Notes: generated by a model from the letters alone, not told the origin. DNA of 64,000 nucleotides from a virus (IMGVR_UViG_3300045988_101018:32001-96000), one strand, 5' to 3'. Shown: positions 22,101 to 36,865, counted from the stretch's first letter. A program made the numbers and translations.

Positions 22101-22196
22101 ATAAAAATTATTTCTCAACGTCTCTGTTTTTTATTAATAGATATCTAATGGAAAATAAAGACGTTGAGAAATCAACATATTGAAAGGAGTGGTCGC

Positions 22197-23279
22197 ATGG
22201 CAGAAACAAAGTTTCTTGACAGCATCGGCTTAACTTATCTACTTGAGAAGATAAACGCGAAGTTTTCAAAGATAGGTCATAAACATACCAAGGCGGACAT
22301 TACTGACTTCGCACATGACCACGATGGGAGATATTATACCGAAACCGAAATCGACACAAAGGTTTCCGCGCTAAACTCTGCGATTTCTGGTAAGGCCAAT
22401 TCTTCTCATAAACACGCTGCTGCTGATATTACGTCTGTGAATGCTTCTGCCATTACAGGTAGAATTGCTGCTGCTAATTTACCTAGTTACGTAGATGATG
22501 TGCTTGAGTATGCTGGAACATCTAAATTCCCTTCAACTGGTGAAGCTGGTAAGATTTATACTGATACAACGACAAACAAGATTTACCGCTGGGGCGGATC
22601 GTCTTATGTAGTTATTTCAGACACTATTGCCTTGGGTGAAACCAACTCTACCGCCTACCGTGGCGATAGAGGTAAAACTGCTTATAATCATTCGCAGATT
22701 ACAAGCGGAAACCCACATAAGGTAACTAAGTCCGATGTTGGTCTTGGCAGTGTTGACAATACTTCTGACGCAAATAAAAGTGTTAAGTACGCCAAAAGTG
22801 CAACGGCTAACAACCCGATAAAAACAACAGGTACGGGCGCTGCATATGCGGCAATTGTTGATGGCATTACGGCTCTTACTATTGGTGTTAAATTTACTAT
22901 GGTGCCACATGTTACTAGTACCACTAGGGCACCAACTCTTAATGTGAACAGTCTTGGTGCTAAAAGCATTAGAATGAGACTAACAAGCTCTACTACGGCT
23001 ACAATTCAGCTTACAAGTGCTAGTTTCTTAACCGCCAATAAGCCCGTAAATGTTATGTATGACGGGACTTATTGGGTAATTGATGACTTTGCACAGCCTG
23101 ACGTAAACAGTCTATATGGCACTGTGCCGATAGAAAAGGTTCAAGCTCATATTGCAAACACTACAATTCACATCACTGCCGCTGAGCGTGCTAAGTGGAA
23201 TGCCAAAGCAGATATTACCATTGGCACTGCTGAACCAACTTCAAGTACGTCTGGAATTTTTTATATTCAGACAAATTAA
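22197..23279 (+). CDS. tail fibre protein with H-x-H His-box motifs (paralogue of 32524..33345)
   Basis: ATG after aaaggag. Motifs GHKHTKADITDFAHDHDG and SSHKHAAADITS. About 110 aa (VMVPHVTSTTRAPTLNVNSLGAKSIR...YDGTYWVIDD...LYGTVP) are shared with 32524..33345. Confidence 0.5.
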   Translation: MAETKFLDSIGLTYLLEKINAKFSKIGHKHTKADITDFAHDHDGRYYTETEIDTKVSALNSAISGKANSSHKHAAADITSVNASAITGRIAAANLPSYVDDVLEYAGTSKFPSTGEAGKIYTDTTTNKIYRWGGSSYVVISDTIALGETNSTAYRGDRGKTAYNHSQITSGNPHKVTKSDVGLGSVDNTSDANKSVKYAKSATANNPIKTTGTGAAYAAIVDGITALTIGVKFTMVPHVTSTTRAPTLNVNSLGAKSIRMRLTSSTTATIQLTSASFLTANKPVNVMYDGTYWVIDDFAQPDVNSLYGTVPIEKVQAHIANTTIHITAAERAKWNAKADITIGTAEPTSSTSGIFYIQTN

Positions 23280-23979: not shown

Positions 23980-24005
23980 TTAAAAACTAAATACATAACC
24001 TTATT

Positions 24006-24046
24006 AGGGGTGTGAGTATTTCGCTTACGCCCCTTTTTATTTTTTA
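24006..24046 (+). terminator. rho-independent terminator
   Basis: ggggtgtgag...cttacgcccc imperfect stem followed by tttttatttttt. Confidence 0.5.
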
Positions 24047-24078
24047 TTATATAAAAATAAAAATTTGGAGGTGATTAT

Positions 24079-24177
24079 ATGGCATTACCATACGTAAGCG
24101 TGTCAGCAAGCAGCTCTGGCAATAGATATATCACTGTGACTGGTAGGATGAACTGGTTCTTCAGCAGAATAAAATGA
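24079..24177 (+). CDS. small ORF (32 aa) with a strong RBS
   Basis: ggaggtgattat then ATG. Too short to assess. Confidence 0.2.
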   Translation: MALPYVSVSASSSGNRYITVTGRMNWFFSRIK

Positions 24178-24256
24178 TAATTTTAAATAACAATTGAATA
24201 ATACGTGTACTGGGCATAGTGGGTTATTTATATTCTCCATGCCTTTGTTATCGAAC

Positions 24257-24270
24257 AAAAAAAAAAAAAA
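24257..24270. repeat. homopolymeric A14 tract upstream of the Listeria-Bacteroides repeat gene
   Basis: Fourteen consecutive A at 24257-24270, directly followed by TGA and then the TTG start at 24289. ORF 24194..24382 reads through the tract in a different frame. Confidence 0.8.
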
Positions 24271-24288
24271 TGAAAGGCGGTTGGTAAA

Positions 24289-25248
24289 TTGGCGAGTAAT
24301 AGCAATACTAAAAATAGCGGCAAGGGCGGCGTTACAACTGCGGTCAGCGCATGGTATGATAGCGAAACTGGGAATACAGTAAGACTTTGCATAAGTACGA
24401 GCGTTAAGGGAAGCTCTAATGGCCCGTGGGGCTATGGCGTAGTCGGGCAGTCTGGCTACGAAGGGAATGGAGCAAACTGGAAAGAGGTCGGTCGCGGAGT
24501 TTTTAACTATGCCAACACTGTCGTTAATGGTACAGCATATTTTACAGTCGGAAAAACCCATAGCGGATGGACTGCGAGCTGTTGGGCAAAGTCGTGGGGC
24601 GAAGCGGCTGGTGGATATGGCGCATACATTGCCAGCGATGATGTTCGCTGTAACGTATGGATCCCAGCAACGTCTAGATACACTCTTTCCTATAATGCCA
24701 ACGGTGGCTCGGGCGCTCCTTCGAGCCAAACAAAATGGCATGGCGAAACATTAACGCTCTCCTCTGCTAAGCCAACAAGAGACGGATATGAATTTGCTGG
24801 TTGGGGTACGTCTGCCACTGATACTGGCGTTAAATATGCTGCTGGCGGACAATATACAGGAAATGCAAGCATCACACTGTATGCTATCTGGACTAACGCT
24901 GCAAAGATGACTCTTGCATATAATGCCAACGGTGGCTCGGGCGCTCCTTCGAGCCAAACACATTTGATAAATACAACCTCTAAAATATCTGGTGCTAAGC
25001 CCACTAGAGACAAGTATGTGTTTTTAGGGTGGTCTACGAGCAGTTCTGCCACAAGTGCAACATATATCGCAGACGGGCAGTACACAAACAACAATTTTAC
25101 CAATGGCGCAACCGTCACGTTGTACGCTGTGTGGCTGAAGAAGAGTCCGAGTATATATATAAATTCATCAGAACATAGTTTCAAATCGGTTTGGGTAAAT
25201 GTGCCTTCTGGCAAGAGCCTTAAATCAATCTGGTTCAAGACTGGTTAG
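24289..25248 (+). CDS. Listeria-Bacteroides (Flg_new-type) repeat-containing surface-binding protein
   Basis: Two copies of Y-N-A-N-G-G-S-G-A-P-S-S-Q-T...A-K-P-T-R-D-G-Y-x-F-x-G-W-x-T-S...Y...T-L-Y-A-(I/V)-W, matching the Flg_new/List-Bact repeat consensus. Confidence 0.55.
   Translation: MASNSNTKNSGKGGVTTAVSAWYDSETGNTVRLCISTSVKGSSNGPWGYGVVGQSGYEGNGANWKEVGRGVFNYANTVVNGTAYFTVGKTHSGWTASCWAKSWGEAAGGYGAYIASDDVRCNVWIPATSRYTLSYNANGGSGAPSSQTKWHGETLTLSSAKPTRDGYEFAGWGTSATDTGVKYAAGGQYTGNASITLYAIWTNAAKMTLAYNANGGSGAPSSQTHLINTTSKISGAKPTRDKYVFLGWSTSSSATSATYIADGQYTNNNFTNGATVTLYAVWLKKSPSIYINSSEHSFKSVWVNVPSGKSLKSIWFKTG
24691..24960 (+). repeat. two identical 42-bp direct repeats (24691-24732 and 24919-24960) encoding the Flg_new repeat core
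   Basis: tataatgccaacggtggctcgggcgctccttcgagccaaaca occurs twice verbatim. Confidence 0.7.
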
Positions 25249-25267
25249 TTGATGGGAGGTAATTGAG

Positions 25268-25627
25268 TTGGCTGACGAAGTTGAATTAAGTGAAGTTGAT
25301 TACAAGCTTAAATATACAGGCGAGGAAGTCGATAGTCTCCTTGCGTTTATAAAAGATTTTAAAAATATCTACAACAAGATGAAGCGCGTTCAGGCTGGAT
25401 GTGAAGCTATCTCTACGACTACGGCTGGTGCAGATGTGATTAAGGTTATAGATTTCAGTGTTGCCTTTAACGGTGTGCCGAATGTTATGCTCATACCTAC
25501 TTTTCTAAATGATAAAACGGCTAAGGCAAAAGTTCTTAATATCACGTCTTCTAATTTCAAGGTTCAGGTAGTAGGAAATGATAACGATGCCACAACCAAC
25601 TTGTATTGGATAGCTACTGAACAGTAA
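25268..25627 (+). CDS. hypothetical protein
   Basis: TTG start after gggagg. 119 aa. Confidence 0.4.
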   Translation: MADEVELSEVDYKLKYTGEEVDSLLAFIKDFKNIYNKMKRVQAGCEAISTTTAGADVIKVIDFSVAFNGVPNVMLIPTFLNDKTAKAKVLNITSSNFKVQVVGNDNDATTNLYWIATEQ

Positions 25628-25674
25628 ATCTTGTTTGATTATATATCAAAGTTTGAATGAAAGGAAGTAAAAAT

Positions 25675-26118
25675 ATGAGTTGGGTTAATCTTAATGATGT
25701 TTATGTAAATCAGACTGGCGGAACTATTGCTGGCGATCTATCTGTAAACGGCGCTTTGACGGTAAATGATGGCAAGGGAACGAACACCACATACAATGTT
25801 GCCAATGAAATTACAACGTTGCGGGATTCCGTATCCCAATGTAAACCGCAATATAAAATTTATGCTGGGTCGAGGGTAATAAACATCACACAATCTTGGG
25901 GTACGCTATTTACAAAAGACGAATTTATATCCTCTTTTGGACGCGAATTTAATAATTCAAGAGACAGCATATCAGTTATGAATGGAGATGCGAAAGCCAA
26001 CAATATTACCGTTTTTGGTGTTTCGTATTATCCACAAGACGGCAAGTTGCTTGTTGCATTATCGGCGAACGGCGGCGGTGCTTTTAGGATCAATTATATC
26101 GTAGTTCTTGCTGAGTAG
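25675..26118 (+). CDS. shufflon expression locus: 56-aa constant N-terminus, then site-encoded D-S-V-S-Q, then the currently fused C-terminal cassette (cassette 0)
   Basis: ATG after aaaggaag. An in-frame copy of the 13-bp site in reverse orientation (gggattccgtatcccaa, 25823-25839) encodes D-S-V-S-Q. This is the only copy preceded by an RBS, a start codon and an N-terminal domain. The N-terminus carries a GGTIAGDLSVNGALTV beta-strand-like motif. Confidence 0.6.
   Translation: MSWVNLNDVYVNQTGGTIAGDLSVNGALTVNDGKGTNTTYNVANEITTLRDSVSQCKPQYKIYAGSRVINITQSWGTLFTKDEFISSFGREFNNSRDSISVMNGDAKANNITVFGVSYYPQDGKLLVALSANGGGAFRINYIVVLAE
25823..25839 (-). repeat. recombination site R0 (reverse orientation) inside the expressed gene
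   Basis: Its reverse complement, ttgggatacggaatccc, matches the core of R1-R8. Confidence 0.75.
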
Positions 26119-26152
26119 ACGTTATTGGCATACGCATATAAGAAATCATGCG

Positions 26153-26488
26153 CTAGTTGATATACCATGAACAAATACCCCTGTTAATAGCACCAGATAT
26201 CGAAGCAGCAACTTGAAACCCAATTGCTCCGTTTGGATGGACATAGCCATATGCGCATACGTTGAGTATGTAGCCATTGGCATTTGTCACACATGATGGC
26301 GAATAAATTGTATGGTCTGGTCGAAGATTTTCTGGAATGACATGTTCTATTCCCCAATACTCATTTGTTGATTGAGAAACAGTCCATACGAGTATACACG
26401 TGTATCCAACACGCCGAATATGAACGTATGAGGAACTACCCGGCGCTCCGTATAGCACAAGCGTATCGTCTTGGGATACGGAATGCTA
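26153..26488 (-). other. silent C-terminal cassette A (starts at the R1 forward arm with H-S-V-S-Q, ~105 codons)
   Basis: The minus-strand frame opens at the TAG inside R1 and reads CAT-TCC-GTA-TCC-CAA before the unique sequence. No RBS or ATG. Converges on the expressed gene, 35 bp apart. Confidence 0.6.
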
Positions 26489-26508
26489 AGTATGGGTTTC
26501 CGTATCCC
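26471..26508. repeat. site R1, a palindromic double site (forward arm 26471-26488 ttgggatacggaatgcta; reverse arm 26498-26508 ttccgtatccc)
   Basis: Seen directly. Cassettes diverge from the two arms. Confidence 0.75.
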
Positions 26509-26843
26509 TGACAAAAGACACATGCAAAGGAGCCAACGGCTGGGTTGTACAAACTGGCGCAATTACACGTACAGAAAATTGTGTAACCATGTGGGTAGAT
26601 GTTGTTGCTGGAAATAGCGCGAATAAGAATGTAAATACAACGTTTGCGACAATGCCGTCTGCTTTCGCGCCTAGCACATATAATATTGAACTTCCAGTAT
26701 TAGGGTTCACTACAACGTCTTATCCAATTAGCTTTTGGATAATAATCACTACAAGTGGAGAAATCAAAATTAAGCAATATGTACTACCGTCTAACACAGT
26801 TCTAGGCCAAATTAAATGTTGTTGTACGTATTTAAAAATTTAA
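26498..26843 (+). other. silent cassette B (plus strand, starts at the R1 reverse arm with V-S-V-S-L)
   Basis: The frame opens after the TAA inside R1 (gctaag) and reads GTT-TCC-GTA-TCC-CTG. It contains track ORF 26589..26843 and ends with TAA immediately before R1b. Confidence 0.55.
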
Positions 26844-26860
26844 TAGCATTCCGTATCTCA
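26844..26860 (-). repeat. site R1b (reverse orientation, 1 mismatch: tagcattccgtatctca)
   Basis: Seen directly. Confidence 0.7.
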
Positions 26861-27221
26861 GATTAAATTATTGTGGAGCGGGTCTGTGTACGGCGGCGGT
26901 TCATTTGTCGTACCAGAGCTAAAAGAATATACATTTGTAGAAGTGGTTACTTCAAATGCTGATGAAAATCATTGGGGCGTATTATGTTTTAATGACATGA
27001 ATGCATTAAAATCTACCGATGATGCATATGGCATGTGGGTATACGCAGATATACACGCTGGCTTGGATTACATAGTATCAATAAAATCAAAATTGGAAAT
27101 ACAGAAAGACTTAAAGACTGTGAAATTCACAGCTGGATATGCATTTAACGTAATGAAAGAAAACACCGTTATTACTTCAACGCAAAAACTTCGTATCGTT
27201 GCTGTGTATGGCGTTAGATAG
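26844..27221 (+). other. silent cassette B' (plus strand, starts at R1b with H-S-V-S-Q-I-K-L-L-W-S-G)
   Basis: TAG-CAT-TCC-GTA-TCT-CAG then an open frame that includes track ORF 26871..27221. Confidence 0.6.
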
Positions 27222-27227
27222 GCTGTA

Positions 27228-27581
27228 TTATAGATACAACATTCCAGATATCTTACGCACTCCATATGCATACATGCCGTTATAGTATGATGCATTTAAA
27301 GTCAGTTTTCCATCTGGGTCAAGCTCAACAAATACTGAAAATTGCGCAGAAAAATCTGCAACTCCTACAAAATATACATTTGTTTTTGGTCTATATTTTG
27401 ATGGCAATGATATGGACACTGACTTATATCCATTTCCACTTGCAGACATAAAGCCAGAAACCCTGTCACATATAACCTTTATCGCGTTTTGACTTGGAAT
27501 ATACACGACATTTATATCAAATGTTGCACCAACAAGGTCAACGCTATAGTCGCCAATTTTCTCTTGGGATACGGAATGCTA
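27228..27581 (-). other. silent cassette C (minus strand from R2, H-S-V-S-Q-E-K-I-G-D)
   Basis: Extends track ORF 27228..27506 up to R2. Converges on B', 6 bp apart. Confidence 0.6.
27564..27581 (+). repeat. site R2 (ttgggatacggaatgcta)
   Basis: Seen directly. Its last 3 nt (cta, read as TAG on the minus strand) form the stop codon of cassette D0. Confidence 0.75.
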
Positions 27582-27905
27582 TTTTAACTTTCCTATAACA
27601 GTTTCCTGTACGTACATTCCTACATTAGACATAGATGTTGCAGATGAAAGATAGCATCTAACGTCTGTTACATTCTTAATTTCGACATAATGTCCAATCC
27701 ATAATCCATTTCCAGTGACGGGATTAACATCTGCATATAAGATAGAGTCGTATATATCAGGGGCGTTAAACGCATAAGAACAAAAGTACAATGAACCAAA
27801 TAGAGCTGTTGCAGAAATGGTTTTATGAACTTTTCTTGTTGACAGAGCATAGCCTATTCCAAAATTAAAAATAGTCCAATCTCCATTTTGGGATACGGAA
27901 TACTA
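27579..27905 (-). other. silent cassette D0 (minus strand from R3, Y-S-V-S-Q-N-G-D-W)
   Basis: Extends track ORF 27579..27791. The stop codon lies inside R2. Confidence 0.6.
27888..27905 (+). repeat. site R3 (ttgggatacggaatacta)
   Basis: Seen directly. Confidence 0.75.
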
Positions 27906-27910
27906 GGTTA

Positions 27911-28161
27911 TTAAACTTCAATATAATAAACGATAACATTTATTTTTCTATTTGAATATTTCCCTGCGCTGCCGTCCCATGCCATAAGACGAACTGTTCT
28001 ACCCTGTTGTGCGTCAGTTCCCGTATGAAACGCATATCTCGCATCGTACATCCCACCAATTCCTATTGGAATCTGCCTTGCGTTAAGTCCCGTTTCGAAA
28101 TATCCATTAGGGTCTGTAGTTGTATCTATTTGTTTTGTTTTTATAATATGGGATACGGAAT
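27911..28161 (-). other. silent cassette D (minus strand from the R4 forward arm, N-S-V-S-H-I-I-K-T-K)
   Basis: Open frame of about 83 codons ending with TAA at 27911-27913. Not in the ORF track because it has no M. Confidence 0.5.
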
Positions 28162-28187
28162 TCCCATGTTTAGTATTCCGTATCCCA
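28149..28187. repeat. site R4, a palindromic double site (tgggatacggaat - tcccatgtttagt - attccgtatccca)
   Basis: Seen directly. Nearly identical to R6. Confidence 0.75.
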
Positions 28188-28527
28188 AATCAGTAATAGA
28201 GTATTGCTTTGGAGTGGAACGGCTGGCAAAGGTGTGAAAATTACGATTGACAGCGACTATTCATTTAAAGAATTCAAATCATTTTATTGCCTTACAAGTA
28301 TCGATAAAACAATCGGATTGCCGCTTGTAAGAAACTCTGGAATACAACAAGACCAGCATTTACACGGCATTACTGGATGGGATGATGGTAATACAACATA
28401 TACGCTTGTTGGGCTAATTAGAATAAATACAGAGACAACTGCGACCATTACGTCTATATCAAAACACGATATAAGTGGCAATGGTGGAATTGCTGGCAGC
28501 TTACTTAAACTATGGGGATGTTACTAA
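28175..28527 (+). other. silent cassette E (plus strand from the R4 reverse arm, S-V-S-Q-I-S-N-R-V-L-L-W-S-G)
   Basis: Extends track ORF 28204..28527. Shares the LLWSG motif with B'. Confidence 0.6.
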
Positions 28528-28530
28528 TCG

Positions 28531-28881
28531 TTACTTCCACATGCCTTTGACGTTATATTCTATAAATGCCACTGTAGTAGTATTGTTATATTTTATATCT
28601 TGGTTTAACACATATACTCCAGTGTCTACTAGCCCAATAGAAGCTCCTGTACCAGATAATACGTAAACGCCCTTTTGTCCAGAGCTATATATTGCAGAAG
28701 CGCCCTTATACAATAAACTAGTTAAAGGAAATGGAAAATCAACAGCGGGTGCAGTAACACTACCAATCCCTTTTATTTCTTTTCCTCCCCAAAATTCTGC
28801 AAGACCGCTATTCCATTTGCGATAAAACCAGATTCCAGATGTTCCCTGTGCGACAATATAGTCGTGGGATACGGAATGCTA
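28531..28881 (-). other. silent cassette F (minus strand from R5, H-S-V-S-H-D-Y-I-V)
   Basis: Extends track ORF 28531..28713 to R5. Converges on E, 3 bp apart. Confidence 0.6.
28865..28881 (+). repeat. site R5 (tgggatacggaatgcta)
   Basis: Seen directly. Its last 3 nt provide the stop codon of cassette G. Confidence 0.75.
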
Positions 28882-29144
28882 TAACGGTATAGCAATCCAA
28901 TTTATAGTACATTGTATGTGTTGATATTCTTGGTGACTATTCCAAACGTCCATAGTAAACCCAGTTGATGTTTTGTTATACACCATTTCCGTAACAGAAG
29001 GCCATCCCCATGTTTCAATTTTTGGAAACTGAAGAGATGTGATAACAACATAATCTGTTTCGATTGGTGTATTAAATTTAACCTGAACAACGTTATCATT
29101 TATGTTTGTTGTCATGGTAACAACACCTCTTTGGGATACGGAAT
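28879..29144 (-). other. silent cassette G (minus strand from the R6 forward arm, Y-S-V-S-Q-R-G-V-V-T)
   Basis: Contains track ORF 28879..29115. The stop codon is the TAG inside R5. Confidence 0.6.
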
Positions 29145-29170
29145 ACCCATGTTTAGTATTCCGTATCCCA
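29131..29170. repeat. site R6, a palindromic double site (ttgggatacggaat - acccatgtttagt - attccgtatccca)
   Basis: Seen directly. Confidence 0.75.
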
Positions 29171-29501
29171 GAGCGAATGGAAAGTCCTCAAGGGCAACAT
29201 CGGCTCCAACCATCTGGCGTACAAAATCTGCAATGGCATCTGCTATCTGAGCATCGATTGCGGCGGAGACTGGAGCATCAAGGCCAACGCGAAGTCCACT
29301 GTTGACATCATTACCATGCCAGACGAAGCATTGCCATCCACGTGGATTGTTTCAGCTGCTTGTTACCCAAAGGGCGGCAATTCAGACTTCGTTTGCGGTG
29401 TGACATTAAACAGGAAGACTAAGAAGCTATCCGTATGCAACTACTCGAACACGGCAACCAACTACTATTCCGTCACTTTCTGCTATCCAGTCAAAAATTA
29501 G
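29158..29501 (+). other. silent cassette H (plus strand from the R6 reverse arm, S-V-S-Q-S-E-W-K-V)
   Basis: Extends track ORF 29316..29501. Confidence 0.55.
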
Positions 29502-29504
29502 CAG

Positions 29505-29795
29505 TTATATGACATTCTTTTTGTATAGAATTACGAATGTAATTTTAAAATCATGCCATGTGCCTTTGTTTGTTACCTCGTTATTTTGAATGCTTGCATA
29601 TGCAGTGTCGTTATCGCGCAGACCAAATTGCGTGATAATACATGAACCTGTGTGGTTTGACTTCACCGTGGTAAGGCATACAGGCGTATAGCCATCGTAT
29701 TTCACGCTGGTGTCAAAGTCGGCAACCGCGCCATACCTTAATGATTTGGCGGCAGACGTGAAGCTCTTTGTCGTGTACTGGGATACGGAATGCTA
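29505..29795 (-). other. silent cassette I (minus strand from R7, H-S-V-S-Q-Y-T-T-K)
   Basis: Extends track ORF 29505..29705. Converges on H, 3 bp apart. Confidence 0.6.
29779..29795 (+). repeat. site R7 (tgggatacggaatgcta)
   Basis: Seen directly. Confidence 0.75.
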
Positions 29796-29797
29796 TG

Positions 29798-30102
29798 TTA
29801 AAAAATAACAAAGGTTGCCCTTACGCTTCTGTTGCCAGACTGTAAATATAAATATCCATTTTGATAATAGGCAGTTGCGTGTAGGCTTATGTCAGAAACA
29901 TAATAGCAATCTACACAATCGTCAGGCCGTGTATTATTTTTAATAAAATGAGATATGGGAAACACTGTAGAACATAGCGGTCTATTATTGTAAACGCATA
30001 TTAAACAACCCATTTTTGTTGTGGGTAAATTGACTTTAAATGATTCGTATGAAGTAGAACCGCTTGTTTTTGCCACCTCTACAGGAGCTTGGGATACGGA
30101 AT
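29798..30102 (-). other. silent cassette J (minus strand from R8, D-S-V-S-Q-A-P-V-E)
   Basis: Extends track ORF 29798..30076. The frame is closed by TAA at 30128-30130, so it is not fused to the recombinase. Confidence 0.55.
30089..30102 (+). repeat. site R8 (ttgggatacggaatcccc), the closest match to R0 and the outermost inverted partner
   Basis: Seen directly. Lies 6 bp from the recombinase stop codon. Confidence 0.75.
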
Positions 30103-30108
30103 CCCCAG

Positions 30109-31005
30109 TTAGCTTATAGCCCTTATTTTAGACTTTCTAGCTTTGTCGAATATCAGCTTCTCAACAGCCGCCTGAGCTTCTTGGCAGATTGTTTTACGAG
30201 GAACGATATAGTGATTATATGCTGTGCTAATCTCTGTATGACCAAGCATCATGGCAACGGTTTCGATGCCAACTCCTGCTTCAATTGCAAGTGTAGCCCA
30301 TGTATGACGCATGTTAGTCATAGATACATATGGTACACCCATCTTCTTACACTGTGACTTGATAGCACGAGCTGCTTTATCGGGAGATACATCACCGATA
30401 AGAAGCCCATGTCCTTTAATCTGCTTTAGGCGCTGACGTGCAAACTTAGGTAGATAGCAAGACCTAGTAGACTTTTCTGTCTTAGTTTTTACTGTGATGA
30501 TTTGACCGTTCACATATTGGCGCGACTTGCTAATACGCACCTCGCCAGTCTTAAGATTGATATCAGACCATTCGAGAGCGCAAGCTTCGCCACGGCGCAA
30601 ACCAAGAGTTACAGCACAGATAGTTACGGCTTCAGCCCAATGACCCCACATGCCGCGAAGCATCTCTGATACCTCTTGTGCGTCTAAAACATCTGGGCGA
30701 TAAGGCTTGGGGTGGTTTACTTCTATGTATGCGGTTGGATCGATAATATGTAGGCGCTTCTTGCGAATCCACCAACGGATGATTTGGCGAATACATTTAA
30801 ACGCTTTCTCTCCTGCGCCAGCTTTTTCAAATGAGTCTACCCACTCCTGCAAATCATCAGGGCAGATATCTTCAATCTCACATTCGCCCCATCGCGGAAG
30901 TACATGAAGACGCATTGATGAGTCGTATCCAGCTATGGTGGATGCCGCCATCTTCTGTGTTTTCTCGGGTAGATAATGCTGTTCATAGATGTCGATAAGT
31001 TTCAT
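30109..31005 (-). CDS. tyrosine site-specific recombinase (298 aa), candidate shufflon invertase
   Basis: R (LGLRRGEA), H-x-x-R (MRHTWATLA), LGHT and the Y of STAYNHY in canonical order. Sits directly beside the site array. Confidence 0.75.
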   Translation of the reverse strand: MKLIDIYEQHYLPEKTQKMAASTIAGYDSSMRLHVLPRWGECEIEDICPDDLQEWVDSFEKAGAGEKAFKCIRQIIRWWIRKKRLHIIDPTAYIEVNHPKPYRPDVLDAQEVSEMLRGMWGHWAEAVTICAVTLGLRRGEACALEWSDINLKTGEVRISKSRQYVNGQIITVKTKTEKSTRSCYLPKFARQRLKQIKGHGLLIGDVSPDKAARAIKSQCKKMGVPYVSMTNMRHTWATLAIEAGVGIETVAMMLGHTEISTAYNHYIVPRKTICQEAQAAVEKLIFDKARKSKIRAIS

Positions 31006-31021
31006 TTTTTAAATCCTTTCA

Positions 31022-31082
31022 TTGAAAAAATCCCACGCAATTTAACTCGAAATGAGTATATAACTTGCGTGGGATTTTTTCA
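31022..31082. promoter_or_regulatory. perfect 19-bp inverted repeat (ttgaaaaaatcccacgcaa ... ttgcgtgggattttttcaa, 23-nt loop) in the divergent promoter region
   Basis: Seen directly. Lies between the recombinase start (31005) and the divergent plus-strand gene (31200). Confidence 0.5.
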
Positions 31083-31199
31083 ATGGTGCATATAAATTTA
31101 TTTATATATAAATTAAAAGTTCTACAATTTTGAATATTAGAAAACACATTTTATGTTACAATATTAACCATATTTATAAACTCTAATGACCAAGGAGGT

Positions 31200-32036
31200 A
31201 TGTCTATGTACGAAGTGCCTTGTTTAAATCTTAACGGAGACACAATTAATAGATTCTATCAATGGGACATAGACCAGAAGATAGTTATCGACCTTAATGG
31301 ATGCGATGAGAGATATCTTCAGAATCCACCTGAAGTACATTTCTCTAATTCAAGTAGGAAAGAAGCGTTGGTTGTTCGCTCTACTGTAAAATATAGTGGT
31401 GATGATGTAGCTGTTCAAGATGACAGTGTGGCAACAATGCACGCAGGAGATATCATTATTGCCGATATTCCTAATATTCTATTGCAGGAGCCTTATCCTC
31501 TACTTGTCTATGTATATTTAACTGACGCAGATGATTCGTCTTCTCAGAAAACAATTCTATATAGTGAGATCCCTGTTCGTAAACGTGCAAAGCCAAGCGA
31601 TTATCTCTACGTTGAGAATATTACTCGCATTACTGCCGAGATGATTAAAAAAGAAATTGAATCTAGCACCGAGACGGCTAGAACAAATGCCATTAACGAG
31701 ATTAATAACGTTAAAACAGAGTCTATAGCTACTGTTACAGATACAAGAGATGCTGCTGTAAATACCATAACACAGACTAAGACAAACGCCGTTAGCACTG
31801 TTGATGAAGCCAAAGAAGGCTTTATCACCACTGGCAACGCCCTTGTTAATACCGCCACTGAGATTAAGAATAATACTCAGAAGACATATGATAATGCCGT
31901 TTCTGTTGCAAATAAGACTCAGCAGACTATTGAGACAAACATAAACACGCTCATCACAAAGAACGGCGTGTATCTTAAGACTGTTAACGATGGAAGCGGC
32001 AATGCAAATCTTGCCATTCTCGTAAACCAATCATAA
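31200..32036 (+). CDS. hypothetical structural protein (fibre-module associated)
   Basis: RBS aaggaggt upstream. The C-terminal motif VNDGSGNANLAI is shared with the next ORF. Confidence 0.45.
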   Translation: MSMYEVPCLNLNGDTINRFYQWDIDQKIVIDLNGCDERYLQNPPEVHFSNSSRKEALVVRSTVKYSGDDVAVQDDSVATMHAGDIIIADIPNILLQEPYPLLVYVYLTDADDSSSQKTILYSEIPVRKRAKPSDYLYVENITRITAEMIKKEIESSTETARTNAINEINNVKTESIATVTDTRDAAVNTITQTKTNAVSTVDEAKEGFITTGNALVNTATEIKNNTQKTYDNAVSVANKTQQTIETNINTLITKNGVYLKTVNDGSGNANLAILVNQS

Positions 32037-32523: not shown

Positions 32524-33345
32524 ATGGATGGAAATAAGATAATGAAATCCCTTGGCGGTCTTGAGGTGTATGACGAAGCTTGCAGACAGCGCGTTGTAGG
32601 TATTACAAGTGCTGGCACTGGTGCTGCATATACTGCTGCCGTTAAGGCAATTGAAGTTCTTTCTGTTGGTGCTAACTTTGTTATGGTGCCACATGTTACT
32701 AGCACTACTACTGCGCCAACATTAAATGTCAATGGTCTTGGCGCGAAGAATATTAGGATACGTATTTCTAGCTCTCCTAAATCTACTATTCAGCTGCCAA
32801 GTGAAGATTTCCTTACAAACGGCAAGCCAGTAAGACTTATATATGACGGTCAATATTGGATTGTAGATGATATGGTTCAGCCTAATGCCAATGGCCTATA
32901 CGGTACTGTTCCTGTGGCTTCTGGTGGCACTGGTGGCACAACTGTTGAAGAAGCCAGAAACAACTTGGGTCTTGGAAATACAAGCGGTGCTCTGCCTATT
33001 GCTAATGGCGGTACTGGATGTACAACACTTGCAGATGCTAAGAAGCTATTTAGCGTAGCAGATGATACTGGTGTCATTCCAGTATCGAGTGGCGGCACTG
33101 GTGCCAAGACCGCTGCTGATGCTAGAACGAATCTCGGTATTACTCTTGCCAATATCGGAGCCGCTGCAAGTTCTCATAAGCATGATGCTTCAGATATTAC
33201 AAGCGGCGCTCTTGCTATCGAGCATGGTGGTACTGGTGCAACAAATGCGAAAGCTGCCTTGAATAATCTCGGTATCAGATGGGGTAAAGATAAAGCCGAG
33301 GATTCTGGTACACCGAATACCATCTATATTCAGTTGCTTGATTAG
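32524..33345 (+). CDS. tail fibre protein (paralogue of 22197..23279)
   Basis: VMVPHVTSTTTAPTLNVNGLGAKNIRIRISS...YDGQYWIVDD...LYGTVP. The C-terminus carries G-G-T-G repeats. Confidence 0.5.
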   Translation: MDGNKIMKSLGGLEVYDEACRQRVVGITSAGTGAAYTAAVKAIEVLSVGANFVMVPHVTSTTTAPTLNVNGLGAKNIRIRISSSPKSTIQLPSEDFLTNGKPVRLIYDGQYWIVDDMVQPNANGLYGTVPVASGGTGGTTVEEARNNLGLGNTSGALPIANGGTGCTTLADAKKLFSVADDTGVIPVSSGGTGAKTAADARTNLGITLANIGAAASSHKHDASDITSGALAIEHGGTGATNAKAALNNLGIRWGKDKAEDSGTPNTIYIQLLD

Positions 33346-35668: not shown

Positions 35669-36865
35669 TTATAATAGGAAGTCTTCTGCTTTTGCCACTT
35701 CTTCATTCAGTTTTGTCTCTAACAAGTGGGTATATTTCAAAGTGGTAGCATAACTAGTATGCCCCATGATTCTTTGTATAAACACTGGATCTAATTTCTT
35801 TTCAAAACACCTAGTAGCAAACGTATGTCTAAACGCATGTGGATAGATGTGTTCCATTTTTTCTGGCGCTCTGCCTTCTATTGCCGCATTATATTCTTCT
35901 TTTTCGTTGATGTTCTTCAATACCTTTTCAATGTTATGGGACAATGCATATCTTGTTACTGGCGAGCCAAGTGTTGTCGTAAAAACTAAATCGCCTAACT
36001 CTGGTCGCAATCTCCATCTACTTCCAAGCTTTGCTTTGTATTGGTCTTGTTTTACCTTCCAATCTTTAAATAGTTCTCCTACATTCCCGAAGAACGGAAT
36101 AGTTCTGTAGCTATTGCTCGTCTTTGGCGTTGTGAGATATTCCATTTTCTTGCCGTCAACATAGCCAATGCTCAGGCTTCTTTGTATCCTGATTGTTTTG
36201 TTTTGCCAGTTTATATCCTGCCATTGAAGGCCGCTGAATTCACCGATTCTCATGCCAGTAAGTAATAAGATTTGGTAAGCTTCATTGTAATACTCATGTT
36301 CTATTTCATCTAAAAACATTTTCATTTCACGAGAACTCAAAACCCTACGTTCTTGAACAGCTTCATTCTCGTCTTTTATTGCTATATTAATACACGGGTT
36401 AGACTTAATGATTTGATTCATAACCGCTATATCCAAACACTCTCTGAGTACGCCAAGTGCTTCTCTCAGCGTTCTTGCTTTGAATTTACTAAGCAATTCG
36501 TTTGTTGTGTCTTGCATATTCATATGAGATATATTCTCTATCTTTTTATCCCCTATTGCAGCAATGTATGTGTTAGATACTTTTCTATGATATGCCTTTT
36601 TAGACACTTCCGACTTCAATGCTGGCTTTTTGTATTTTTCAAACCACTCTTCAAACCATTCAGACAGTGTAAGGTTTGGTCTAATATTCTTTTCGTCTCT
36701 TAGAATCTTAATTTTTTCTTCTTCAAAACGTTTCTTTAATGTTGGTAGATGCATATCGTATAAGCAAATTTTTGTACCATTAATCATTGCACGCGCTTCA
36801 AAACGTTTATCTTTTCGTTGACTGTATCCGCGCCCCAAGTCTTTGCCTTTAAGGTCTTTCCCCAT
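35669..36865 (-). CDS. int: phage-type tyrosine integrase
   Basis: 398 aa. R (LLTGMRIGEF), HAFRHTFAT, IMGHTSYATTLKYTHL. A repeat-rich non-coding region lies alongside. Confidence 0.8.
   Translation of the reverse strand: MGKDLKGKDLGRGYSQRKDKRFEARAMINGTKICLYDMHLPTLKKRFEEEKIKILRDEKNIRPNLTLSEWFEEWFEKYKKPALKSEVSKKAYHRKVSNTYIAAIGDKKIENISHMNMQDTTNELLSKFKARTLREALGVLRECLDIAVMNQIIKSNPCINIAIKDENEAVQERRVLSSREMKMFLDEIEHEYYNEAYQILLLTGMRIGEFSGLQWQDINWQNKTIRIQRSLSIGYVDGKKMEYLTTPKTSNSYRTIPFFGNVGELFKDWKVKQDQYKAKLGSRWRLRPELGDLVFTTTLGSPVTRYALSHNIEKVLKNINEKEEYNAAIEGRAPEKMEHIYPHAFRHTFATRCFEKKLDPVFIQRIMGHTSYATTLKYTHLLETKLNEEVAKAEDFLL

Follow-up and report, generated by a model that had tools for sequence, protein, structure and literature searches.

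A large, very probably Rin-type tail-protein shufflon in a gut phage, in which paired head-to-head sites very probably act as ordinary recombination sites

When short recombination sites lie back to back inside an invertible phage locus, do the resulting palindromes form a special kind of site, or are they two ordinary sites that face each other? The question is raised by a 64,000-nucleotide (nt) stretch of viral DNA (IMGVR_UViG_3300045988_101018:32001-96000; hereafter the window, in whose coordinates positions are given unless a related locus is named), which contains three such palindromes, R1, R4 and R6, within an array of short reading frames. An initial interpretation of the DNA made without database searches (the sequence-only reading) likened the mixture of single and double sites to the asymmetric-site logic that biases the Rci recombinase of R64 toward inversion. 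Here, we report that region 25675–31005 is very probably a phage-encoded Rin-type shufflon in which the double sites are ordinary head-to-head sites.

The repeated unit of the array is the 12-nt core GGGATACGGAAT, which occurs 13 times in the window when at most one mismatch is allowed, always within 25826–30102 (approximately 4.3 kilobases, kb); dinucleotide-preserving shuffles of the window gave a mean of 0.18 copies and a maximum of 1. Eight cores are in the forward orientation (starting at 26473, 27566, 27890, 28150, 28866, 29133, 29780 and 30091) and five are reversed (25826, 26497, 26848, 28175 and 29158). Six cores are paired in R1, R4 and R6, and the other seven are single sites. When read as ATTCCGTATCCC, the cores open into downstream cassettes of 83–124 amino acids, which share one frame and start xSVSQ/H. 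The site consensus across the family, T-R-G-N-A-TTCCGTATCCC-A, is asymmetric. The last core lies 6 nt from the stop codon of a minus-strand gene (30109–31005) for a 298-amino-acid tyrosine recombinase with a PF00589 domain (E 2e-16) and an N-terminal SAM-like core-binding domain. The protein is about the size of XerD and has neither a lambda-type arm-binding domain nor an Rci-type C-terminal extension; we infer that this adjoining recombinase is the enzyme acting on the cores.

The sequence-only reading had described R1, R4 and R6 as a forward arm, a spacer and a reverse arm from which cassettes diverge, and this description holds. In each of the three, two cores face head to head across a spacer (12, 13 and 13 nt, respectively), and open frames run leftward and rightward from them (110 and 115 amino acids at R1, 83 and 117 at R4, and 88 and 114 at R6). 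R1 (26473–26508) is made up of cores 26473–26484 and 26497–26508 around the 12-nt spacer GCTAAGTATGGG; the first core serves a minus-strand cassette, and the reverse core, TTTCCGTATCCC, which has one mismatch relative to a perfect inverted copy, serves a plus-strand cassette. R4 (28150–28186; cores 28150–28161 and 28175–28186) has the 13-nt spacer TCCCATGTTTAGT (ACTAAACATGGGA on the other strand), and R6 (29133–29169; cores 29133–29144 and 29158–29169) has the 13-nt spacer ACCCATGTTTAGT. It was also correct that R4 and R6 differ at a single spacer base: 28149–28187 and 29132–29170 are identical at 38 of 39 positions, and the first base of the spacer (T versus A) is the sole difference. The likeness ends at the outer edges of the cores, beyond which the flanks are unrelated. 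Read on the opposite strand, the R4/R6 spacer (ACTAAACATGGGA/T) is similar to that of R1. The two arms of each double site differ directly ahead of TTCC, with TAG(C/T)A on one and GGG(N)A on the other. The 12- to 13-nt spacer is two non-cassette arms laid end to end, and a double site is two ordinary head-to-head sites at the junction between divergent cassettes, not a separate class of site.

Palindromes of this kind might instead act as hairpins or cruciforms in DNA or RNA, for example as a terminator or a regulatory stem-loop, and have no part in recombination. Their predicted DNA folding energies (-12 to -16 kcal/mol, with z-scores of -5 to -8) would suit such a role, but any two inverted 12-base-pair (bp) sites 13 nt apart fold in this way automatically. 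Both cassettes that flank a double site have their 5′ ends there, T-runs are absent, a terminator scan reports nothing at these places, and the same 12-mer appears seven more times in the window as single sites. We consider the hairpin explanation extremely improbable.

A search for the recombinase family returned 340 protein clusters at E ≤ 1e-20, the top one with 849 member sequences. Scanning IMG/VR with the recombinase gave 19 loci at 72–100% identity, many of them on contigs of approximately 130 kb, and pattern scans of viral and metagenome contigs gave approximately 40 further loci, mostly from human gut samples; four pattern matches (L036, L037, L041 and L053) were left out as unrelated, being lone palindromes without arrays. 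Counts of locus entries include some contigs that were fetched twice, so that independent contigs are fewer. All 19 IMG/VR loci have the same core downstream of the recombinase, with 4–13 sites per array in differing orders and orientations. The same non-cassette flank joins different cassettes across loci and the same cassette joins different flanks; the constant flank ATTACAACGTTGCGGGA, for instance, is joined at the expression site to at least 14 cassette families across approximately 60 related gut phage and metagenome loci. Cassette families number 69 at 60% identity, in 18 loci. The convergent pairs c03/c01, c08/c09 and c19/c13 travel as units in either orientation. When the window shufflon was aligned with related loci by BLAST, 86 of 152 block ends fell inside a core or no more than 5 nt away. 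At the level of assembled genomes, these data directly demonstrate reassortment of flanks and cassettes at the cores. Cassette sets differ largely even between phages with 95–99% identical recombinases, and the range of 4–13 cassettes among relatives indicates loss and gain over evolutionary time.

The double sites take part in this reassortment one arm at a time. The exact R4 spacer is present in 10 other locus entries (some of them re-fetched contigs), in both orientations and with many cassette pairs. The spacer alleles ACTAAGCATGGGA and GCTAGGCATGGGA and the R1 allele likewise recur with differing cassettes, the R1 spacer being joined to other cassettes in L005. As a whole, the spacer family RCTARRYATGGGW is found in approximately 40 locus entries (fewer independent contigs), in both orientations and with many cassettes on each arm; cassette c07 has a GGG arm in the window, at R6, and a TAG arm in L005, L006 and L048. 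Comparison of the aligned loci thus directly demonstrates that both arms of a double site exchange cassettes independently. The spacer itself is not of fixed length. In clades of 56–66% guanine-plus-cytosine (G+C) content, with recombinases 36–55% identical and the same core, spacers of 10, 11, 12 and 25 nt were found, and in L002 (12903–12924) and L007 (11142–11163), the cores overlap (spacer -2) to form the perfect 22-bp palindrome GGGATACGGAATTCCGTATCCC. These overlapping sites share the palindromic arm GGAATTCC, and the cassettes on both sides still differ between L002 and L007. Other arrays (L012, L014, L015, L016, L018, PMBT6 and ctl617) are without any double site and are still shuffled relative to their relatives. 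Because the arms are independent, the spacer length is variable, the cores may overlap and many arrays have no double site, the double sites are not special; they give no sign of a function beyond that of ordinary shufflon junctions.

Several points weigh against this interpretation, or against its wider setting of an active, receptor-switching locus. The spacer always pairs one GGG-type with one TAG-type arm, which may hint at an extra function, and it is well conserved within the low-G+C clade, which may hint at a role beyond juxtaposition. Three double sites were seen in no locus other than the window, and inversion alone cannot explain that number. The evidence for activity is wholly comparative, from assembled contigs, and metagenome assemblers can mis-order shufflons. 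The receptor-binding role of the shuffled protein is putative: Pfam and PHROG scans of the 13 cassettes gave no significant match, and an AlphaFold2 model of the expressed 147-amino-acid protein, made from a single sequence without an alignment, was unusable (pLDDT, the predicted local distance difference test, was 35).

The two spacer features would favor a different view, in which each double site is a single specialised unit (a four-protomer platform, a synapsis organiser or a directionality element) that biases recombination toward inversion, and the analogous pairs in R64 point the same way. Against this stand the dependence of spacer length on clade (-2, 10, 11, 12, 13 or 25 nt), the independent exchange of cassettes on the two arms and the shuffling of arrays that have no double site (L012 versus L015 and L016 versus L018). 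Conservation of the 13-nt spacer as a family within a clade is accounted for by descent, since recombination at the cores cannot break the spacer. We judge a specialised unit to be improbable, and nothing links the double sites to a bias toward inversion.

In the preferred reading, that of a Rin-type shufflon with ordinary head-to-head sites, the recombinase would bind the sites and bring two that lie in opposite orientations into synapsis, one of them being the expression site or any other, and strand exchange within the 11-bp TTCCGTATCCC would invert everything between the two. Each site belongs to one cassette, whose start lies inside that site, and inversion would attach any of the 13 C-terminal cassettes (83–124 amino acids) to the constant ~50 codons; cassettes oriented like the expression site would need one prior inversion. 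Double sites would take part one arm at a time, as ordinary sites. The idea that GGG-type arms are "strong" complete sites for internal inversions was set aside: supporting evidence was not found, and the idea is unnecessary because inversions between the expression site and any inverted site reach every cassette.

This scheme leads to a simple counting rule. A segment between consecutive cores holds one cassette if the sites are direct, two tail-to-tail cassettes if they are convergent and none if they are divergent. Inversion reverses direct segments and leaves convergent and divergent segments unchanged, and recombination at the cores cuts no segment; the number of double sites is thus invariant under inversion. 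Given fixed recombinase-side and constant-side ends, an array with k+1 convergent segments must hold k double sites. Read from the recombinase side, the order in the window is c06>, c33>, c34<, R6, c07>, c03>, c01<, R4, c12>, c18>, c08>, c09<, c04<, R1, c19> and c13<, the last of which is expressed, giving five one-cassette segments, four convergent two-cassette segments and three zero-cassette segments, which are the double sites. In 200,000 simulated random inversions of the window's sign pattern, 792 patterns arose, and all had three double sites and four convergent junctions. Larger inversions carry a zero-cassette segment along and flip it passively, which explains the resemblance of the R1 spacer to the R4/R6 spacer reversed. 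The counting rule offers a check on shufflon assemblies and a way of recognising non-inversion events.

One such event appears to have occurred in the window. The relatives seen have at most one double site each, and neither inversion nor deletion between direct sites adds double sites; the three copies therefore need another event. The extra near-identical spacer copies presumably came from unequal or inter-genome exchange at sites, or from a re-integrated excised circle, either of which would also fit the mosaic cassette content of phages with near-identical recombinases. The sequence-only reading had taken the near identity of R4 and R6 to suggest recent duplication or repeated recombination products; a duplication in this genome could have proceeded by unequal exchange between phage genomes in different inversion states or by capture of an excised circle. 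The 38 matches in 39 positions agree with such an event, as does the window's position as the sole locus seen with more than one double site, a number that inversion cannot raise, and the rapid cassette turnover between phages with 95–99% identical recombinases is in keeping with it. Yet nothing past the 39 bp is duplicated, all 13 cassettes differ and a donor and recipient pair was not identified. The R4 spacer allele is the commonest in the data set, which makes descent from two donors equally possible, whereas the R6 allele, with one change at position -2 of the GGG arm, is private to the window. The identity of R4 and R6 is thus mainly inherited; recent duplication is a possible, if doubtful, source of the extra copies, and it is compatible with a shufflon of ordinary sites rather than opposed to it. 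Two possible sources of the spacer were also considered, the flank nearest the recombinase (AGCTAACTGGGG) and the terminus of the constant flank, but the likeness is too weak to claim.

The unusual count could also be an artifact, the order with three double sites being an assembly chimera from a population mixed for inversion states or strains. Shufflons are known to be hard to assemble (PMC5430464), the window is an outlier with its three double sites, and a scan with the double-site pattern matched it to no viral contig. A chimera is nevertheless unlikely. No cassette is present twice, and typical final assembly k-mers and read lengths exceed not only the 12-bp cores but also the 39-bp double sites; L005 likewise has 13 sites, and double sites recur in dozens of locus entries from several independent assemblies.

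Polymorphism among the related loci bears on where strands are exchanged. Position -2 is invariant in 34 of 48 flank groups versus 10 of 47 cassette groups and so tracks the non-cassette flank; position +11 is invariant in 46 of 47 cassette groups versus 19 of 48 flank groups and tracks the cassette. Exchange is therefore placed inside ATTCCGTATCCC. Position -1 (A or T) stays with the flank in L016 versus L018 and in R1 versus L005. A core variant with CCA at position 10, TTCCGTATCCA, is found at the constant-flank site with four cassettes (L007, L009, L044 and L059) and also at one silent site in L009 (12157), a spread that fits a base in the heteroduplex overlap because both junctions of an inversion convert together. 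With moderate confidence only, these patterns suggest that the overlap may be the cassette-proximal part of the core, about GTATCCC, with the better-conserved arm R-G-N-A-TTCC on the non-cassette side. A 5-7-5 dyad, TRGNA/TTCCGTA/TCCCA, in which the overlap would lie in TTCCGTA, likewise agrees with the logo of 276 distinct sites, but the behavior of CCA at position 10 suits a cassette-proximal overlap better.

The non-cassette side of the site also distinguishes the expression site from silent ones. An in-frame TAG lies 5–3 nt ahead of TTCC at 8 of the 13 window sites (e.g., 27579–27581 and 28879–28881), and this TAG outside the site is the actual stop codon of two window cassettes (27579–27902 and 28879–29145). 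Position -4 is A in 58% of the 276 distinct sites and is never C or T. The expression site carries G at this position, giving TGG or CGG instead of TAG. Across the family, (T/C/G)GGGA precedes the expression site, and an in-frame TAG precedes most silent sites.

The expressed gene (25675–26118, plus strand) encodes a 147-amino-acid tail protein composed of a constant N-terminal part and the active cassette c13. The constant part (25675–25825) is approximately 50 amino acids long, runs from MSWVNLNDVYVNQTGGTIAGDLSV to TLR and has an alternative upstream ATG at 25657; c13 (25825–26118, 97 amino acids) joins it at the plus-strand expression-site core ATTCCGTATCCC (25826–25837), where the non-cassette flank ends CGGG. 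The gene directly upstream encodes an H-type lectin domain, and the surroundings form a tail and tail-fibre module. The shuffled protein is a small tail protein and is probably receptor binding.

The 13 cassettes tile 25825–30103 nearly without gaps and share only 13–25% identity with one another; all except c13 are silent. From R1, cassette c19 (26153–26485, minus strand, 110 amino acids) runs leftward from the forward arm, and c04 (26496–26843, plus, 115 amino acids) runs rightward from the reverse arm. It is followed by c09 (26847–27221, plus, 124 amino acids), which has the variant core ATTCCGTATCTC at 26848–26859 and converges with c08 (27228–27578, minus, 116 amino acids; core 27566–27577); this pair is kept as a unit in L002, L007 and L009. 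Next is c18 (27579–27902, minus, 107 amino acids; core 27890–27901), whose reading frame ends at an in-frame TAG supplied by the non-cassette arm of the following site. From R4, c12 (27911–28162, minus, 83 amino acids) runs leftward from the forward arm and c01 (28174–28527, plus, 117 amino acids) runs rightward, converging with c03 (28531–28878, minus, 115 amino acids; core 28866–28877); members of the c01 family occupy the expression site in L007, L060 and L061. From R6, c07 (28879–29145, minus, 88 amino acids) runs leftward from the forward arm and c34 (29157–29501, plus, 114 amino acids) rightward, converging with c33 (29505–29792, minus, 95 amino acids; core 29780–29791). The last cassette, c06 (29798–30103, minus, 101 amino acids; core 30091–30102), forms the fixed, recombinase-proximal end of the shufflon; on the non-cassette side it is flanked by the 3′ terminus of the recombinase gene.

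Just upstream of the recombinase start (31005, minus strand) lies a 25-nt inverted repeat (31020–31085; 96% complementary, 16 nt apart), and the best sigma-70-like match of the region, TTGAAA-17-TATACT (31083–31055, minus), sits within it; on sequence grounds, the repeat may be a promoter or operator governing the recombinase. A second tyrosine recombinase (35669–36865, minus; 398 amino acids, phrog_1 integrase) is distinct from the shufflon enzyme; as in the published Rin prophages, it probably serves as the true integrase of the phage. Elsewhere, the window encodes NrdD, a DnaB-like helicase and a DNA polymerase III alpha subunit with 50% identity to its counterpart in the 132-kb Clostridioides phage pCD1602_4. 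The replisome genes are similar to those of large Clostridioides and Bacillus siphoviruses. G+C content is 39% in the window and 45% in the recombinase gene. The carrier is probably a gut phage of the ~130-kb class, with 39% G+C, that infects Firmicutes. A near-identity search of 24000–32000 against GenBank phages gave no match, and a transfer RNA scan of the window found none.

Several paralogous fibre genes lie on either side of the shufflon. Tail-fibre-like open reading frames at 22164–23279 and 32524–33345 have a common block, ...GAAYxAxV...VMVPHVTSTTxAPTLNVNxLGAKxIR.... A further open reading frame (24289–25248) contains a 51-nt direct repeat (24682–24732 and 24910–24960; 96% identical, 228 nt apart), which corresponds to two Listeria-Bacteroides repeat (Flg_new) domains.

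Two arrangements were observed among the related loci that are not simple inversions. In L019 (11300–12300) and also in L011, two full constant N-termini stand in tandem, each with a different cassette, beside the decayed sites AAGATACGGAAT and GTGATACGGAAT; this is apparently a frozen shufflon, now two fixed paralogous genes. In L013, three sites lie within 80 nt (2143–2219), and a 28-nt piece there consists of the first 25 nt of c16 plus TGCGGG, the end of the constant flank, followed by a core and cassette c10. The piece is an illegitimate, non-site junction inside the shufflon.

Among described systems, the Rin shufflons of actinobacterial prophages come closest, and the window locus is very probably a new, unusually large Rin-type example. 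In Bifidobacterium breve and Bifidobacterium longum prophages (Bb423phi1 and others), a rin recombinase gene lies beside Rv cassettes and an Rc constant part, with the repeat rix, TTCCCTAACCC (PMC6109161; Mavrich et al., 2018), and clade-1 prophages of Eggerthella lenta have a Rin shufflon with the repeat ttccgtat (PMC8778435). The cassettes of Rin systems are receptor-binding domains of the TP901-1-like head or H-type lectin kind, dissimilar to each other and approximately 100 amino acids long, and rix also lies within the expressed gene. The window's TTCCGTATCCC includes an exact copy of the E. lenta 8-mer and agrees with the Bifidobacterium rix at 9 of 11 positions. In both systems, a tyrosine recombinase without an arm-binding domain lies beside short variable C-terminal cassettes and a constant N-terminus, an asymmetric repeat marks each cassette start, an in-frame stop lies just outside silent sites and related genomes differ by rearrangements that end at the repeats. 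The window differs in having 13 cassettes rather than about five, a constant part of ~50 rather than 168 amino acids, and a carrier of ~130 kb and 39% G+C rather than a ~40-kb, high-G+C actinobacterial prophage. It also has convergent two-cassette segments and three back-to-back pairs, which the available portions of the published Rin descriptions do not mention.

The same layout, with the core TTCCGTAACCC, is present in Bifidobacterium phage PMBT6 and Siphoviridae sp. ctl617, next to recombinases 34–38% identical to that of the window; the PMBT6 enzyme is 34% identical over 95% of its length. An Enteroscipio (Eggerthellaceae) contig encodes a recombinase with 71% identity and has four TTCCGTATCCC sites. 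The PMBT6 and Enteroscipio enzymes lend indirect support to a putative homology of the window recombinase with Rin. Recombinases on Collinsella, Enteroscipio and Aphodovivens contigs (60–68% G+C) are 58–72% identical, and the contigs that continue beyond this gene (L020, L021 and L023) contain the same core or a close variant. Phages with very different hosts appear to share the shufflon module.

The likeness to R64 and Rci proposed in the sequence-only reading applies to architecture, not to enzyme or site. R64 (NC_005014; locus L027) has seven sfx cores between rci and pilV, at 28211(+), 28721(-), 28744(+), 29222(-), 29245(+), 29574(+) and 30133(-), which form two back-to-back pairs (28721/28744 and 29222/29245), three convergent segments and one single-cassette segment. 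As in the window, a tyrosine recombinase performs multiple inversion at asymmetric sites located at the 5′ ends of alternative C-terminal cassettes, and convergent two-cassette segments are parted by back-to-back pairs whose spacers occur in both orientations; the 8-nt spacers of the R64 pairs, TGGCCTAC and GTAGGCCA, are exact reverse complements. In both systems, the pairs number one fewer than the convergent segments (two and three in R64, and three and four in the window). The enzymes are distant: the window recombinase is 21% identical to Rci over 134 amino acids, in the catalytic domain only, and the 298-amino-acid protein has no counterpart of the extra C-terminal domain of Rci, which is 384 amino acids long (PMC11852207). 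The window site is also unrelated in sequence to sfx. Each sfx site combines the 7-bp core GTGCCAA with a conserved right arm of 12 bp. Recombination in the R64 type is by inversion only, site asymmetry suppressing exchange between direct copies; any similar bias against deletion in the window is hypothetical. In the window, by contrast, the non-cassette arm is partly conserved (T-R-G-N-A), and the exchange region suggested by the polymorphism data, at the cassette-proximal end of the core, would mirror sfx. The target differs as well, being a phage tail protein in the window and a pilus adhesin in R64.

Other phage inversion systems share the outcome of the recombination. The Gin (Mu), Cin (P1) and Min (p15B) systems swap C-terminal tail-fibre parts by inversion, changing host range, and Min is a multi-segment shufflon; these systems use serine recombinases with an enhancer and Fis, whereas the only recombinase of the window locus is of the tyrosine type (PF00589). 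In a BV01-like Phocaeicola phage, the distal end of a tail-fibre gene is a multi-cassette shufflon flanked by a recombinase, with all configurations present in reads (PMC13596623). That locus is likewise a recombinase-flanked tail-fibre shufflon of a gut phage, but it has the repeat TGGGAGAACT, three cassettes only and a Bacteroidota host (PMC13596623).

Beyond inversion within one genome, we tentatively suggest that the sites could also serve co-infecting phages to swap, duplicate and capture blocks of cassettes in the manner of an integron. A linked suggestion, equally tentative, is that the asymmetry of the site mirrors that of sfx: the non-cassette side would carry the conserved arm RGNATTCC, and the overlap would be at about GTATCCC. 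If integron-like exchange does take place, it would explain why cassette sets differ despite 95–99% identical recombinases, how this genome came to have three spacer copies that inversion cannot multiply, and why the same core and 72%-identical recombinases are found both in 39%-G+C, 130-kb Firmicutes-type phages and in Coriobacteriia prophages of 60–68% G+C. If the site is mirror-asymmetric, the strong arms of paired sites would be shared or adjoining, and only one site of a pair could be occupied at a time.

These data indicate that Rin-type tail-protein shufflons are larger, with 13 cassettes in the window, and more widespread than the few published cases suggest, and that they occur in a large, low-G+C gut phage that probably infects Firmicutes as well as in actinobacterial prophages. 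The comparative data provide a site consensus and bounds on the exchange region. Arrays of this kind imply rapid host-range switching in abundant gut phages.

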